From Escherichia coli (GTDB taxonomy: Bacteria; Pseudomonadota; Gammaproteobacteria; Enterobacterales; Enterobacteriaceae): a stretch of DNA of 64,000 nt. This document shows, piece after piece, positions 17,886-27,134 of this stretch (positions within the stretch are counted from its first letter, which is position 1; each line of letters starts with the position of its first letter). Below the pieces are notes generated by a model. That model did not search any database. It saw only the letters and a program-made list of their open reading frames with translations, and was not told the origin of the DNA. Location of the stretch: assembly GCF_050320075.1 (NCBI RefSeq), contig NZ_CP190018.1. One strand, given 5' to 3'. The position numbers and the translations under genes were made by a program.

Positions 17886-19013
17886 TTATGCTCTGCTTGA
17901 TTCAGTGATTTTGGAATCCTGCATTTTAGTAATCATACCCATAATTTTATGCCTAAGCTTTTCCATTGGGTTTTCGATTAGATAAAAACTTACCGCCCCA
18001 ACTAAGATTGATGCTACCATCGTTGCTATATACATATAGAAACTGATTCCTACGTACCACACACCCATTGCTAGAATCAGGAAGTGCCATAGGTATATAG
18101 AGAAGCTCCATTTACCAATGTAAGACATTAACGGTGTTGACAGAGCCCAAGCAAATACACCTTCTCCATAGCTCATTAGCAGAACAATGAGTCCAAATAT
18201 TGGCGCATAGAAAATAAATTTGTTGAGAACCCATCCATCAGTAAACCCACCAGTTAACTTCCACATAACTTTAGGCAGTGCAATAAGCATTGATACAATA
18301 AAGAACAGGAAGGCTATATCAGACAACTCTTGACCAATTTTAAGGAAATTATCGTGATAGAGAAATGCTGCAATCATTCCGCAAGCAAACAGTGGGAAAT
18401 ACCACATCACCATTCCGCCATACGCACTATCCATCGCAGGGTACAATCCCTGTAGCAATACAGCCAGTGCGAAAATAAGGAATGCCGCTGCTTTTCCATT
18501 GTACACTTTTTGAATTGCGACACCAGCATACGCAAAGAATGGAAGTATGAAGTAGAATTTATACTCAATTGGTATTGTCCAGAAATGAAGCACGGCCTCT
18601 TTCATCGTTATGATTGAGATTGCCGTATTCAAATCAAAATACCCAAAATATGAATACACGAGAACAGCTATTGCGAACACCGGAAGGATTCTCATTGTTC
18701 TTCCAAGGAAATAACTTAAAAGAGACCGCCAGGAAAATCCGGTAGAAATAAATCTACTGGTTAGCAAAAATGCGCTGAGAACAAAGAATATCCAAACGCC
18801 AAACTGTGAACTTCCACCAAGCATAACCTCATACTCATGAAAATATATTCCTGTAGCGTGGGCTATTATTACAAGGAATACCGCTATTGCCCTTAGTCCA
18901 TCAAGAGACTTGATTTTACCTTTCATTTCTTTCCCAGATATGGAGTGAACATCTGCGAAAATGTAGCACATTTCAAGGTAAACAAGAAGCGCATCCATGC
19001 GCATTTTCATCAC
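17886..19013 (-). CDS. oac: Acyltransferase-3 family membrane protein (O-antigen acetyltransferase, Oac-like)
   Basis: 375-aa multi-TM protein with N-terminal '[16 protein letters not shown]' acyltransferase-3 signature; AT-rich; directly downstream of tailspike, as in Sf6-type serotype-converting phages. Confidence 0.65.
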
Positions 19014-20929
19014 CCTGCCTTGGTGTATGTCCAGTTAAATGTTGTTGTTCCCTGGCTTGTGATGGTTACAATCCTTCCTGTCACTGTAAATGATATCAAC
19101 CCTCCTGACTTAAGCGGAGTTAAAGTAAGTGTTGTTCCGTCCCACATGGCAAGCTGAAGCGAAGAGAAATTTGTTCCACTGCTTTCTGCCCAAACGCTTA
19201 TCAGGTACATCCCTTGGCTATTTGGCAGTTCAAACAACGTAGTTGCTACGTTAGCTGCAACAGCCTGAGTTCCTTTCGCTGTGTACACTGCTGGCAACTG
19301 ATTACCTGCAGAGCTTCGTGATTCAACATATGAGCCTGAAGTTTGCGTCCCAGTTAATGAGCAGTCAGTAAATACTCCATTCCCTGTGCTGTAAGTTGAT
19401 ATTACAGGAGTCCCACCAGTCGGAGCCTTAAACCGGCATCCCTCAGCAATTATTTTTGCTGTTGAGTCTGTCAGCAATGTGTTTGGGTATCCAGAGCCAG
19501 TGTAGGTTATTGATTCGCTATCAAGGAAGCTATCGGTACTTGATTTTATGTTAACAATGCTTGTGCCTGTTGCAAAGATAAATGCTGCTGTCCCACTCCC
19601 CGTTGTTTGCATTGAGTTTCCATGCCCGGCCAATCCTGATATATGGGCAATAGTATCATTAAGTTTTATATACGACGCAGTAATTCCATTTGTATTTTTT
19701 ATTATATTAGACTCACCATCATACCCTGTAATAGTAAGACACTTACATCCAGAAAAATATAACCCTGAGGAATCAAATGTATATTGCGACCCGTCAACTG
19801 TGATCTGGTCTCCTGCACAGTTTATTAGCTGAGGAGACAGGCAATTTACAACATACCATGCCTGTGCTGCATCCAGCACATAACATGTATCCCACTGTAT
19901 TGTCGTTCCGTTCGCCTTATAGAAACCATGCGCAACTCTCCTCGCCCATACCTGGGTATACTTTGTTAGGTAATTTCCAGAGTCATCATATATGGCCCAC
20001 CATGCACCATCAACCTCAACATTTTTAATGTGCATAACGCCTGGTGAAGTAGTTCCTCCATCAATTAGAATGCCAATTTTACCATCATTGCCAGTAGGTG
20101 ATGTAGGGCGTCCTCCATCGTAAAAAATATAGACATTTTCAATATTTATTGTATTAAACGCTGCGTGGTAATGGAAACAAGCTATATTTCCTATTACTGC
20201 TATGAAAGTTTCCGGCCTATTTATGTTGCTGTTTGTTTCGCCATTTATTGTGCAGTTTGAATTCATCTCTATCGTTGCATTTACGAAGTAAGTTCCAGAT
20301 GTCAATAATACATTCCGCCCTGTATTAATTGCGGCCTGTATGCCTGCATAGTCAAGAGACTGAGTTAGTGATGTTACGAATGGATAAACAGCCTGCGCCG
20401 CTGATAGTGTGGAGAATTTCTCGCTGAGTGGATGCAGAGTTCCGTCAGCTGTTGCACCGAAATCCTTGGCTGAAATGAAGTTGGTATTTTTATCATGTTG
20501 AGTTAAAGCTATTGAGCCGATATATGGCTGCTTAACTGCAACTAGTGCATCTCCCATTCCATCAGCATCGCTTTCTAACTGCTGCTTAAACTGATCAGGG
20601 TCATACTTCAGCACATTAGGAAAATAGAACTGCTGTGCACCATACGCATCATATACAGCCATAGAATGGCCTTGCACAGTTACGAACTTGGCAATCTGTC
20701 CGTTATATACAGGGTAACCAGCGGCGTTAATGATGATTGGTTGCGAAACAGGAACGTGAGAGCCGTCTTCGTTCTCTACATAAACCTGAATCTGGTTTTC
20801 TGGATTTACTGGGTCCGTGTCAATTTTACCGATATAAATTTTGCCATTGGCAACCGCTTTAAAAGAACGCGCCATAGTGAAGAGTTGCGAAGGCATGCTT
20901 ACCACAACATTTGCGGTGATATCTGACAT
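19010..20929 (-). CDS. Tailspike protein (P22 gp9-like head-binding domain, divergent receptor-binding domain)
   Basis: From internal Met: '[43 protein letters not shown]...VTVQGHSMA' matches P22 tailspike N-terminus; remainder differs. Confidence 0.8.
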
Positions 20930-21050
20930 TTCATTGCTCCAGACGAATGATATGATGCAACCATGATGTGATTGCATACCGAAATGGTACTATTGAGTAT
21001 TTATCCAGTAGGTTACGATGCCATTCCACCCAACTGGTGAGGCATCAAGG

Positions 21051-21311
21051 ATGTACAGCAAATACGACGAGGCGCAGTTTCACTTGAGACTTCCGCATGA
21101 ACTCCACGCGAAAATTAAGCAGCGTGCGAAGATGAATAACAGGTCGCTGAACTCAGAGATAATTGCAGCGATTGAGGAATCATTGGATAAACAAAGCTCT
21201 GCATCAGTTTACATTGACGATGCAGAGCGTATGGCAGAACAACAATCTGATATGGTTAAGAAAATTGTCTTTGATACGCTCAAGAAGCTATATAAAAAAG
21301 ACAGCAGATAA
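21051..21311 (+). CDS. mnt: Mnt-like ribbon-helix-helix repressor
   Basis: N-terminal Arc/Mnt RHH 'FHLRLPHELHAKIKQRAKMNNRSLNSEI', C-terminal 'AERMAEQQSDMVKKIVFDTLKKLYKK' matches P22 Mnt tail; antisense to late operon between gp16-like and tailspike. Confidence 0.7.
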   Translation: MYSKYDEAQFHLRLPHELHAKIKQRAKMNNRSLNSEIIAAIEESLDKQSSASVYIDDAERMAEQQSDMVKKIVFDTLKKLYKKDSR

Positions 21312-25828: not shown

Positions 25829-25830
25829 GG

Positions 25831-26289
25831 CTATCTCCCGTGATTCAGGAAGTCGATTAGTTCTTCGCGTGTGGCGCTGTAAAAAGTCACGTCATCCACG
25901 CCTTTAAAGTATTTCTTGATGGTTCCGACACGCTTAAGGCCAATCATTGCGCAGTACATCTGACCGTGGCGGAATTTGCGTGCAGCGAACGATGTTACGC
26001 ACTGAACGGTGGTGTTAGTCAGAATGTATCTCCAGAACGCCAGCCCGATTTCCTTGCTGAAGCCGCGAATCTCTGGCAGGTACATGGCGTGGCAATCGAA
26101 TGTCAGCGGCTGAATCTCTTGATAGTAAACAATGCCGCCAAACTGACCGTGCACGTTAACCTCAAAGTAACGGCATTCAGGCTTGTAGTCGTATCCATCA
26201 CCGTTGTTGCTTCCGGCAATAATGTCAGGGTGATTTCCGACTGCTTCGATCAGGTCGATGTTTCGCGTTGGTTTGAACTGAATCATCAC
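25831..26289 (-). CDS. Virion protein (P22 gp14 position)
   Basis: 152 aa, between tail needle and gp7-like. Confidence 0.45.
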
Positions 26290-27134
26290 TGCTCCGCGAT
26301 TATCTTGATGGTTGTGGCAGTAAACGCCGCACCATTCGACTGAATGGTTAACGTACTGCCATTTGTGGCAAGAAATCCGTCTTTATCCACGCTGAAGAAC
26401 GTAGCTAACAAGATGTTATCGGTTGTTGTCGCCGAGTTGCGACTGCTTACCAGTGTGTCAGGAACAGAACCGGAAAAGGTTAGCTGCATTGACCTGTTGG
26501 CTGTTCCGCTGGGCCACGTCCCGACAATCGACAGCTTGAAGAACAGGGTTTTGTTCTCGTTGAACACAACCATCTTGTTGTTAACGGTGTCGAAGAATGG
26601 CGCCAACGCGCCGGATGACGGCGTGAGCGTTTTCAGCAGGCTAACAAGGTTGGTCGGCGCTGTCGGGATGGTTACAGATACGCCAGAGTAAACAACCTCT
26701 GACTTTTTGCGAGTAGTGGCATACTCCAGAGCATCGATGCGCGTTTCATGGTCTGAAACCTGCGATTCCAGCGACTGAACTCTGGTATCAAGCGACGCAA
26801 TATCGCTTTCATTCTGAGCTATTCGTGTTTCATGTTCCTGAAGAGTTGATTCTGCCTGGCTGATTCGCTCCTCATGATTAACAAGCGTTGCTTCCGCAGC
26901 AGAAATTCGCTGCTCATGGTCAGCGAGAATCACATCCTGCTCATCGTTCCTGACCTGTGCATCATAAGCGCCCTGTCCGGCCTCGTTGGCCTTGTTAGCC
27001 ACGTTACCAACATCAGTGCCCTGTGCGATAACGTAAAGCAGATACGACTGCGAGAAGATATTGCGTGGAAGGACTGATGTGTCGAGCCGCGTAGCCTGGA
27101 TGATTACCGGCACATTGAGATTCGAATCCGCCAT
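26286..27134 (-). CDS. Tail needle protein (P22 gp26-like N-terminus with C-terminal knob extension)
   Basis: '[43 protein letters not shown]' matches gp26 N-terminus; 282 aa vs 233 in P22. Confidence 0.75.

Follow-up and report, generated by a model that had tools for sequence, protein, structure and literature searches.

The window analysed here, a stretch of 64,000 nucleotides, is a part of an E. coli chromosome containing a 38.9-kb P22-like prophage at thrW, and three RefSeq E. coli chromosomes were found to be 100% identical to it. Repeats of 47 nt from thrW mark the two ends of the prophage, and the integrase gene adjoins thrW. The genes for the tailspike, the tail needle, the gp16-position protein and an oac-like acyltransferase are all located on the minus strand, at the coordinates assigned to them by an earlier sequence-only reading. 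RefSeq already contains an annotation of the locus. The following features were identified:

16849-16895, no strand assigned: att copy at the left end of the P22-like prophage, repeating 47 nt of the thrW 3' end (55716-55762) exactly and in direct orientation
17886-19010, minus strand: putative O-antigen acyltransferase (oac-like), Acyl_transf_3 (PF01757, E 1e-23)
19013-20236, minus strand: tailspike specific body, aa 232-639, right-handed beta-helix and C-terminal beta-sandwich
20237-20590, minus strand: tailspike neck and beta-helix N-cap, aa 114-231, with PDB matches to LKA1 gp49 (4ru4) and phi297 (4ru5), E 8e-16
20591-20929, minus strand: tailspike head-binding (tail-hub adaptor) domain, aa 1-113 (PF09008, E 2e-67; PDB 1lkt, 2vky, 7sg7)
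21051-21311, plus strand: Arc/Mnt-family repressor gene by PGAP annotation, with an mnt-like gene at the same position in Sf101
21404-23173, minus strand: gp16-type ejection protein, body portion (aa 208-797) of the Sf6 gp13 type, matching Sf6 gp13 residues 76-665
23174-23794, minus strand: gp16-position protein, N-terminal module (aa 1-207), with SLT domain (PF01464) at aa 7-110, E 3e-25, and catalytic E29
23795-25126, minus strand: gp20-type ejection protein, Sf101 type, 443 aa (PF16928, E 2e-67)
25136-25828, minus strand: gp7-type ejection protein, 230 aa (PF25688, E 2e-134), with 99% identity to its Sf6 and Sf101 counterparts
25831-26286, minus strand: gp14 homologue, DUF2824, 151 aa (PF11039, E 6e-53), 93-99% identical to the proteins of all reference phages
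26289-26717, minus strand: knob at the C-terminal end of the tail needle, aa 140-282, Sf6/HS1 type, TNF-like (PF16532, E 4e-117; PDB 3rwn, 4k6b)
26718-27134, minus strand: N-terminal plug and coiled-coil shaft of the tail needle, aa 1-139, gp26 type, 59% identical to P22 gp26 residues 1-137 (PDB 2poh, 3c9i)

The prophage is apparently intact. In the window, all of its virion, lysis, replication and immunity genes form intact open reading frames, both att repeats are present together with the integrase and excisionase genes, and its length corresponds to the size of a P22-like genome. This makes it very unlikely that the prophage is defective and that its tail and ejection genes are decaying remnants without current function, although clearly degraded prophages are present in two of the seven genomes with the same tailspike (PSJ-23 and FT130). 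Between gene 16 and the tailspike gene, the Arc/Mnt-family repressor gene is the sole remnant of the immI region. For a neighbouring P4-like element, a second att copy was not found in a search with the thrW core.

The open reading frame of the tailspike extends from 19010 to 20977. Its real start is the ATG at 20929, since a GGAG is located 7 nt upstream, the alignment with P22 gp9 begins at residue 1, and the same start was assigned by PGAP; the product (19010-20929) consists of 639 amino acids. The protein belongs to the gp9 family of P22-like tailspikes, with an N-terminal domain covering the full Head_binding profile and a receptor-binding body formed by a right-handed parallel beta-helix. 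Residues 1-121 are 73% identical to residues 1-119 of P22 gp9, with a value of 93% for the Sf101 tailspike. In blastp, no match extended past residue 121 for P22 and Sf101, residue 164 for Sf6 and residue 187 for HK620, and the body (residues 232-639) has no sequence match to the bodies of these four phages. This bore out the proposal of the sequence-only reading that a P22 head-binding domain has been retained in front of an unrelated body. With P22 gp9, Sf6 gp14 and HK620 gp9, the protein shares the PF09008 domain, the YDPDQ hinge and the trimeric beta-helix body architecture, and in all cases the gene adjoins O-antigen conversion genes; it differs from all three in the sequence of its body, which is without detectable similarity to any of them.

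The neck of the tailspike (aa 114-231) shows 50-65% identity with many tailspikes of unrelated body. Homologues of the full body are 25-77% identical, most of them 40-77%, and here the similarity begins at residues 114-117, while the proteins carry other virion adaptors, namely PF18668, PF03906 (the N-terminus of T7 tail fibres) or PF03160. As judged from these alignments, the neck is the left border of an exchangeable module. The closest sequence relatives of the body either have another adaptor (PF18668, PF03906) or are encoded by Citrobacter or Enterobacter prophages, and among isolated phages the nearest ones, the siphoviruses SU57, JeanPiccard and Veterinaerplatzvirus, reach only about 40% identity. 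For phage vB_EcoP-611R6, a tailspike 99.7% identical over its whole length was identified in a record that contains a gp16 of the HK620 type and a needle of the P22 type. The sequence cluster of the tailspike (P0001) comprises 73 members.

The tailspike body is present in seven of 5426 complete E. coli genomes, of which 132 (2.4%) were matched by the wzy gene of O2/O50. With a joined query of tailspike body and wzy, all seven tailspike genomes were recovered with two places per record, so that O2/O50 wzy is assigned to 7/7 hosts on the basis of this count and not from listed coordinates; three of the seven carry an identical prophage. The tailspike cassette is located at four chromosomal sites (thrW, argW, beside torT, and bio/ybhB) and must therefore have been placed independently at least four times. 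Counting four events, the hypergeometric probability of the overlap with O2/O50 is about 3e-7, and counting seven it is about 4e-12. The only new point of this locus is an uncharacterised tailspike whose occurrence is restricted to strains carrying the O2/O50 surface sugar. This association was established directly, while the exact receptor and the enzymatic activities discussed below were inferred. The O2/O50 O-antigen is the likely receptor, since across the seven genomes and four sites the body always occurs together with the acyltransferase gene and in hosts with O2/O50 wzy.

It was also considered that the tailspike might recognise a different surface glycan, such as a capsule or another polysaccharide accompanying the O2/O50 lineages, so that the link to O2/O50 would reflect shared host ancestry. 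The correlation comprises seven genomes only, with the same prophage in three of them, capsules, too, are targets of beta-helix tailspikes, and depolymerases of K1, K2 and K5 are among the fold matches of the protein. However, shared ancestry would have to account for a cassette at four different places in the chromosome, in strains whose sources were chicken, river water, humans, a wild bird, cattle and swine effluent, for the rarity of O2/O50 wzy among the genomes, and for an acyltransferase of the O-antigen-conversion family that always follows the tailspike gene, which makes this explanation improbable. The O2/O50 O-antigen is therefore preferred as the receptor, and a testable receptor assignment is obtained for an uncharacterised tailspike family.

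The tailspike body is the part that binds the receptor and probably also cleaves it, and, by homology with P22, Sf6 and T7, the protein would most likely cleave the O2/O50 O-antigen as an endoglycosidase. It is possibly an endorhamnosidase, since O2 and O50 have one common main chain with several L-Rha residues (PMC7685785). The fold matches also include lyases and an epimerase, and the chemistry is not fixed by the fold. Acidic residues kept across the family of the body are D315, D374, which is invariant, D404, E406 and D466; together with the association with O2/O50 hosts, they are indirect evidence for such a cleaving activity. The repeat unit of O2/O50 consists of L-Rha, GlcNAc and D-Fuc3NAc. 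A beta-elimination lyase, as in the case of LKA1 gp49, was rated less likely, since this unit is not known to contain uronic acid.

Directly downstream of the tailspike gene, the acyltransferase gene codes for 374 amino acids from the ATG at 19010, whose A is also the last base of the tailspike stop codon (TGATG), or for 375 amino acids from a GTG at 19013. The protein contains a predicted integral-membrane Acyl_transf_3 domain over residues 35-340, as expected for a member of the Oac family. The gene follows the tailspike gene in 7/7 genomes, in an identical form in six and in a slightly different version in PSJ-23, and a protein of phage 611R6 annotated as 'Peptidoglycan/LPS O-acetylase' is 100% identical. 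Sf6 Oac belongs to the same Acyl_transf_3 family, is of similar size and is likewise encoded between tailspike and att; however, the two proteins share only 24% identity, and the oac and tailspike genes are convergent in Sf6, while here they are co-oriented and abutting. From its position beside the tailspike gene and its co-inheritance with it, we infer that the acyltransferase would alter the O-antigen of the lysogen itself (lysogenic conversion). In a scan of positions 16600-21500, fewer promoter-like sites were found than in shuffled sequence; a promoter from which the acyltransferase could be expressed in the lysogen was not recognisable, and no clear terminator was seen for the tailspike gene. 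In NCBIfam, no family was identified for the tailspike or the gp20-type protein, no family or equivalog for the acyltransferase, and only sub-threshold transglycosylase matches for the gp16-type protein.

The gene at the gp16 position (21401-23794) codes for a protein of 797 amino acids. It is located after the genes for gp7 and gp20, following gp20 as do the genes for P22 gp16 and Sf6 gp13, and the identity with P22 gp16 is 36% over residues 314-786 (E 1e-77), which places the protein in the P22 gp16/Sf6 gp13 family. Residues 208-797 are 97-100% identical to residues 76-665 of Sf6 gp13, but the first 75 amino acids of the latter are replaced here by a module of 207 amino acids consisting of a transglycosylase domain and a linker, which is missing from Sf6, P22 and HK620. 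As the sequence-only reading had recognised, this N-terminal domain is a lytic transglycosylase. It was assigned to family 1 (SLT, PF01464/GH23) by the presence of the E-S, GLMQ-like and AYNxG-like motifs, with AKE29SSYNP, GLTQVMPGT and AYHDGPG aligning with E478 and the other motifs of Slt70. The linker is rich in Q and P and contains two DPNNPFAQxE repeats (aa 150 and aa 174). Residues 1-207 of Sf101 gp13 (911 aa, annotated as 'transglycosylase') are 100% identical to the module, but are followed by a different body, 12-34% identical to the one described here. The module is thus joined to two or more types of gp16 body and, on the alignments, the gp16-position protein is a clean chimera joined after residue 207. 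For phage IME10, an unannotated homologue was identified, the whole gene lying within a nucleotide alignment of 97.4% identity (window positions 20589-26288).

The largest ejection protein of T7, gp16, also contains an N-terminal SLT domain. Its residues 10-139 are 28% identical to the module over 130 amino acids (E 7e-11), with the three family motifs aligning here as well, E29 opposite T7 E37, whereas the remainder is unrelated in sequence and T7 gp16 is much longer (1318 compared to 797 aa). A review from 2022 stated that P22-like phages lack transglycosylase activity, and that a core stack of the T7 type is not formed by them (PMC8954989). The T7-like transglycosylase head documented here on a P22-like gp16 corrects the former statement. 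Apart from this review, the literature found on a transglycosylase of P22-like gp16 was limited to annotation-level mentions (Sf101, E212), and an earlier description is possible.

By homology, the transglycosylase domain would be a peptidoglycan-cutting entry aid and not a receptor-interaction domain. Alternatively, it might be dispensable cargo or an inactive relic, or might act at lysis or assembly instead of entry. P22, Sf6 and HK620 infect without the module, the T7 domain is required only under some conditions (PMC8954989), and a 97%-identical Sf6-type body without transglycosylase is present in Sf6 as well as in two prophages, MFDS1019527 and EFF60. However, neither the catalytic Glu nor the family motifs are disrupted, and the module, which is carried by about 7% of the P22-like prophages of E. 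coli, shows at least 99% conservation in 66 of 69 E. coli genomes, as well as at least 99% nucleotide identity in seven named phages (IME10, phiKp_30, Dewey, Sf101, APC_JM3.2, Huey and ECO26.1). In addition, its N-terminal position is the same as in T7 gp16, and a separate endolysin (GH24, 37306-37782) is encoded by the prophage. A dispensable or inactive module, or one acting at another stage, is thus rather unlikely compared to a functional entry aid. The natural near-isogenic pairs of Sf6-type gp16 bodies with and without transglycosylase allow a direct test of the contribution of the module.

For the tail needle (26286-27134), the gp26-type N-terminal plug and coiled coil (E 1e-44 for the PDB matches) are followed by a TNF-like knob of the Phage_tail_NK family, matched by PDB 3rwn and 4k6b with E values of 1e-89 to 5e-90. 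With 282 amino acids compared to 233 in P22 gp26, the needle is longer, in agreement with the gp26 N-terminus and knob-type C-terminus predicted for it earlier. Sf6 gp9 (knob structure 3RWN; HS1 knob 4K6B) also has 282 amino acids and is 98% identical over its full length, with five substitutions; nothing of substance differs, except that the needle here belongs to a phage with a different tailspike and a different gp20. The residues contacting L-Glu in the knob (E146, K200, S248 and D250) are conserved.

By domain-wise alignment to P22, Sf6 and HK620, swapped distal domains were established directly in all three proteins together with their junctions, as had been anticipated, collinear similarity to P22 tail proteins over the full length was not found, and none of the domain or protein matches is a chance result. 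The mosaic parentage extends to the gp20-type protein, which is 98% identical to Sf101 gp12, 66% to Sf6 gp12 and 43% to P22 gp20. The gene block, which serves host recognition and DNA delivery, is a case of ordinary modular mosaicism, composed of swapped modules of already sequenced phages, and the known picture of modular exchange of tail genes in P22-like phages is left unchanged. The region very probably belongs to a complete P22-like (Lederbergvirus) prophage at thrW of an O2/O50 E. coli host and represents its distal virion module, built by homologous recombination from modules circulating among Escherichia and Shigella P22-like phages, with tailspike bodies binding the O2/O50 O-antigen. 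A further reading, which has about an even chance of being correct, is that transglycosylase and linker form an independently mobile, functional peptidoglycan-cutting head of P22-like ejectosomes, homologous to the N-terminus of T7 gp16, and that, separately, the tailspike is the first O2/O50-specific one, inherited together with an O-antigen acetylase of its own, the two forming a recognise-and-modify cassette.

Based on P22, Sf6 and T7, six trimeric tailspikes would dock on the tail hub via the conserved head-binding domain, and their beta-helix bodies would bind and most likely cleave the O2/O50 O-antigen, which would bring the virion to the outer membrane. The knob-tipped needle would plug the channel and be released at membrane contact, after which gp7, gp20 and the gp16-type protein would be ejected to form a trans-envelope conduit, with the N-terminal lytic transglycosylase cutting peptidoglycan locally, as proposed by comparison to T7 gp16. 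In the lysogen, the acyltransferase would O-acetylate the O-antigen, so that further adsorption by phages with the same type of tailspike would be blocked.

The sequence-only reading had held that the three proteins together with oac define the host range. This holds for the tailspike, which behaves as a host-range determinant, since its distribution follows the O2/O50 type of the host at four different integration sites while the types of needle and gp16 vary. It does not hold for the knob of the needle, as P22 with the Sf6 or HS1 knob infects Salmonella efficiently and the knob does not set host specificity (PMC3741392, 2013). Neither does it hold for the transglycosylase as a putative entry aid, nor for oac, which would affect superinfection of the lysogen and not the host range of the phage itself. 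The locus is a clean example in which tailspike and acyltransferase, and not needle or ejection proteins, track the O-type of the host. Serogroup O2 is common among extraintestinal and avian pathogenic E. coli, and an O2/O50-specific depolymerase could serve typing or therapy. For the distinction of O2 and O50, the fdtC acetyltransferase gene of YZLc1-3 is present as fragments according to PGAP, yet a 155-aa open reading frame with a TTG start is intact.

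The tailspike, tail needle and gp16-position genes (19010-27134) form the distal part of the late operon of a P22-like (Lederbergvirus) prophage, which was identified from the RefSeq annotation of strain YZLc1-3 and a tRNA scan. Both ends of the prophage are marked by a 47-nt direct repeat of the thrW 3' end (16849-16895 and 55716-55762), and its integrase adjoins thrW and proA. The window is part of an E. coli chromosome; a 10.2-kb stretch around the three genes is 100% identical to the strains YZLc1-3, Ec-U3 and SB0258h1. The late genes are all on the minus strand:

27134-28552, minus strand, gp10, just beyond the region
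26286-27134, minus strand, tail needle
25831-26286, minus strand, gp14
25136-25828, minus strand, gp7
23795-25126, minus strand, gp20
21401-23794, minus strand, gp16-position gene
21051-21311, plus strand, Arc/Mnt-like gene
19010-20929, minus strand, tailspike
17886-19010, minus strand, acyltransferase, just beyond the region

Of the immI region (mnt-arc-ant in P22), only the one Arc/Mnt-family gene is left, between gene 16 and the tailspike gene; phage Sf101 shows the same reduction. The region as a whole is an ordinary, well-annotated case of the modular mosaicism of P22-like phages.

The open reading frame of the tailspike extends upstream to 20977, but the real start is the ATG at 20929, giving 639 aa: GGAG lies 7 nt before it, and it agrees both with the start in P22 and with the one called by PGAP. 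A P22 head-binding domain on an unrelated body had been proposed by the sequence-only reading, and both parts were confirmed: residues 1-121 share 73% identity with P22 gp9 (Pfam Head_binding, E 2e-67), and past residue 121 blastp reported no similarity to the P22, Sf6, HK620 or Sf101 tailspikes. Comparison with 108 database homologues resolved a P22-type adaptor (residues 1-113), a neck and N-cap (114-231) with 50-65% identity to many tailspikes with unrelated bodies, including Pseudomonas phage LKA1 gp49 and phi297, and a specific body (232-639). Homologues of the full body (25-77% identity, most 40-77%) align from query residues 114-117 onwards, straight after the YDPDQ hinge, and bear other virion adaptors (PF18668, PF03906 of the T7 tail-fibre N-terminus, PF03160); some, in Citrobacter prophages, keep the same head-binding domain. 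This pattern is the classical exchange of receptor-binding modules between phage types. Conserved acidic residues in the body family are D315, D374 (invariant), D404, E406 and D466; the D374-E406 spacing of 32 residues is similar to that of the catalytic pairs in the tailspikes of Sf6 and HK620, and serves as a lead only. The body is uncharacterised, since among isolated phages the nearest related bodies, at about 40% identity, belong to siphoviruses, and vB_EcoP-611R6 (ON470589) is not an isolated phage but a prophage that was predicted in the genome of a clinical isolate. The ends of the latter record are imprecise, with host yfdC and a tRNA-Arg beside the integrase at 1-2402.

Of 5426 complete E. 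coli genomes, only 7 contain DNA of the tailspike body, at an identity of at least 99.8%. The O-antigen cluster of YZLc1-3 was located and is of type O2/O50. A joint query of the tailspike body and the YZLc1-3 wzy matched 132 genomes in all; in the seven tailspike genomes it matched two places per record, compared to one for the tailspike alone, indicating that all seven carry the O2/O50 wzy, the frequency of which is 2.4% of genomes. The tailspike-acyltransferase cassette occupies four chromosomal sites: thrW (the window, Ec-U3, SB0258h1), argW (a remnant in FT130, and 611R6), beside torT (a remnant in PSJ-23, and EFF60) and bio/ybhB (MFDS1019527). The remaining virion modules vary among the cassette-bearing genomes. 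A knobbed needle accompanies a transglycosylase with an Sf6-type gp16 body in the window and a 665-aa gp16 type without transglycosylase in MFDS1019527; EFF60 combines the 665-aa type, also without transglycosylase, with a 233-aa needle of P22 length, and 611R6 an HK620-type gp16 with a P22-type needle. With the four placements taken as independent, the probability of O2/O50 at every placement by chance is about 3e-7. O2 and O50 share a main chain with several L-Rha residues and are distinguished by a D-Fuc3NAc branch (PMC7685785). From the O2/O50 wzy in all seven hosts at four sites and the L-Rha main chain, we infer that the O2/O50 O-antigen is the receptor recognised by the tailspike. The tailspike is predicted probably to hydrolyse this O-antigen, plausibly as an endorhamnosidase. 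The O2/O50 association of this uncharacterised cassette is new, if small. In the YZLc1-3 O-antigen cluster, an fdtC-like acetyltransferase (9897-10364 in the numbering of the cluster sequence) is split by PGAP into two pseudogene fragments and forms an intact 155-aa open reading frame with a TTG start. The cluster is separated from gnd by an ISAs1 remnant and a gene of the LTA-synthase family.

The acyltransferase (Acyl_transf_3, E 1e-23) shares 100% identity with its 611R6 counterpart and only 24% with Sf6 Oac. It begins right at the stop codon of the tailspike gene (TGATG); the two genes stand in this order in each of the seven genomes, PSJ-23 having a slightly divergent acyltransferase. Judged by family and position only, it would be a putative O-antigen acetylase for lysogenic conversion. 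Between this gene and the att site, 17127-17621 contains a 95-aa hypothetical gene and a 165-nt tail-fibre gene fragment, which also accompany the cassette in the argW-integrated versions (FT130, 611R6).

The needle was found, as anticipated, to join a gp26 N-terminus to a knob (282 aa, compared to 233 aa in P22). Residues 1-137 are gp26-like (59% identity) and the C-terminus is an Sf6-type knob (PF16532, E 4e-117; PDB 3rwn, 4k6b), with five substitutions relative to Sf6 gp9 and conserved L-glutamate-contact residues. This part is already known: Leavitt et al. 2013 described the knob in 69 of 164 P22-like genomes, in Escherichia and Shigella only, with a divergence of at most 4.9% (PMC3741392). 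The host-range role proposed for the needle is contradicted by the same study, in which P22 bearing the knob of either Sf6 or HS1 efficiently infected Salmonella (PMC3741392). The proposal that tailspike, needle, gp16-type protein and oac together define host range has partial support: modules have indeed been swapped, but the tailspike alone behaves as a determinant.

The gp16-position protein (797 aa) carries the expected N-terminal lytic transglycosylase (SLT, PF01464, E 3e-25), and the rest is homologous to P22 gp16 (36% identity, E 1e-77). Alignment with Sf101, Sf6 and P22 revealed an exact chimera. Residues 1-207, made up of the SLT domain and a Q/P-rich linker that carries the repeat DPNNPFAQxE twice, match Sf101 gp13 at 100% identity, and residues 208-797 match residues 76-665 of Sf6 gp13 at 97-100%, whereas in Sf101 the same N-module runs on into a different body. 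Since the upstream gp20 is likewise Sf101-type (98% identity), a single crossover within the linker explains the fusion. N-module DNA at least 99% identical is present in phiKp_30, Dewey, Sf101, APC_JM3.2, Huey, ECO26.1 and IME10, the last of which has no annotation for the gene. The N-module also occurs in 69 E. coli genomes, compared to 922 with the gp10 marker (about 7%). The catalytic motifs align with Slt70, and T7 gp16 residues 10-139 share 28% identity with the SLT domain (E 7e-11), with E29 opposite the T7 catalytic residue E37 (PMC8954989). By homology, the domain would most likely cut peptidoglycan locally during ejectosome assembly. While P22, Sf6, HK620 and CUS-3 fit a review's description of P22-like phages without transglycosylase (PMC8954989), the subgroup with the N-module does not. 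This point is a correction and not a discovery, since such proteins are already named transglycosylases in GenBank and by PGAP; a small new result is that gp16 proteins of the P22-like kind are documented with a portable transglycosylase head.

Directly against the left att copy lies a P4-like satellite (7143-16685) with genes for an alpha primase-helicase, Icd-like, Ash, Ogr/Delta and Psu proteins and an integrase (15480-16685); a second copy of the thrW core was searched for this satellite and not found. Its psu-int hotspot contains, in an AT-rich stretch (GC 0.35-0.37), the gene for a 461-aa HEPN-domain protein (14123-15508, minus strand), which matched no PADLOC family and is thus a candidate for an uncharacterised gene of anti-phage defence. 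Another island is left as a remnant with an ash gene and an integrase fragment (257-6637), so that mobile elements are stacked at thrW. This remnant encodes an AbiEi/AbiEii toxin-antitoxin pair (PADLOC E 1e-79 and 4e-116) and a 1069-aa reverse transcriptase-nitrilase (2262-5471) of the defence-associated type RT_UG5-nitrilase (PADLOC score 1034).
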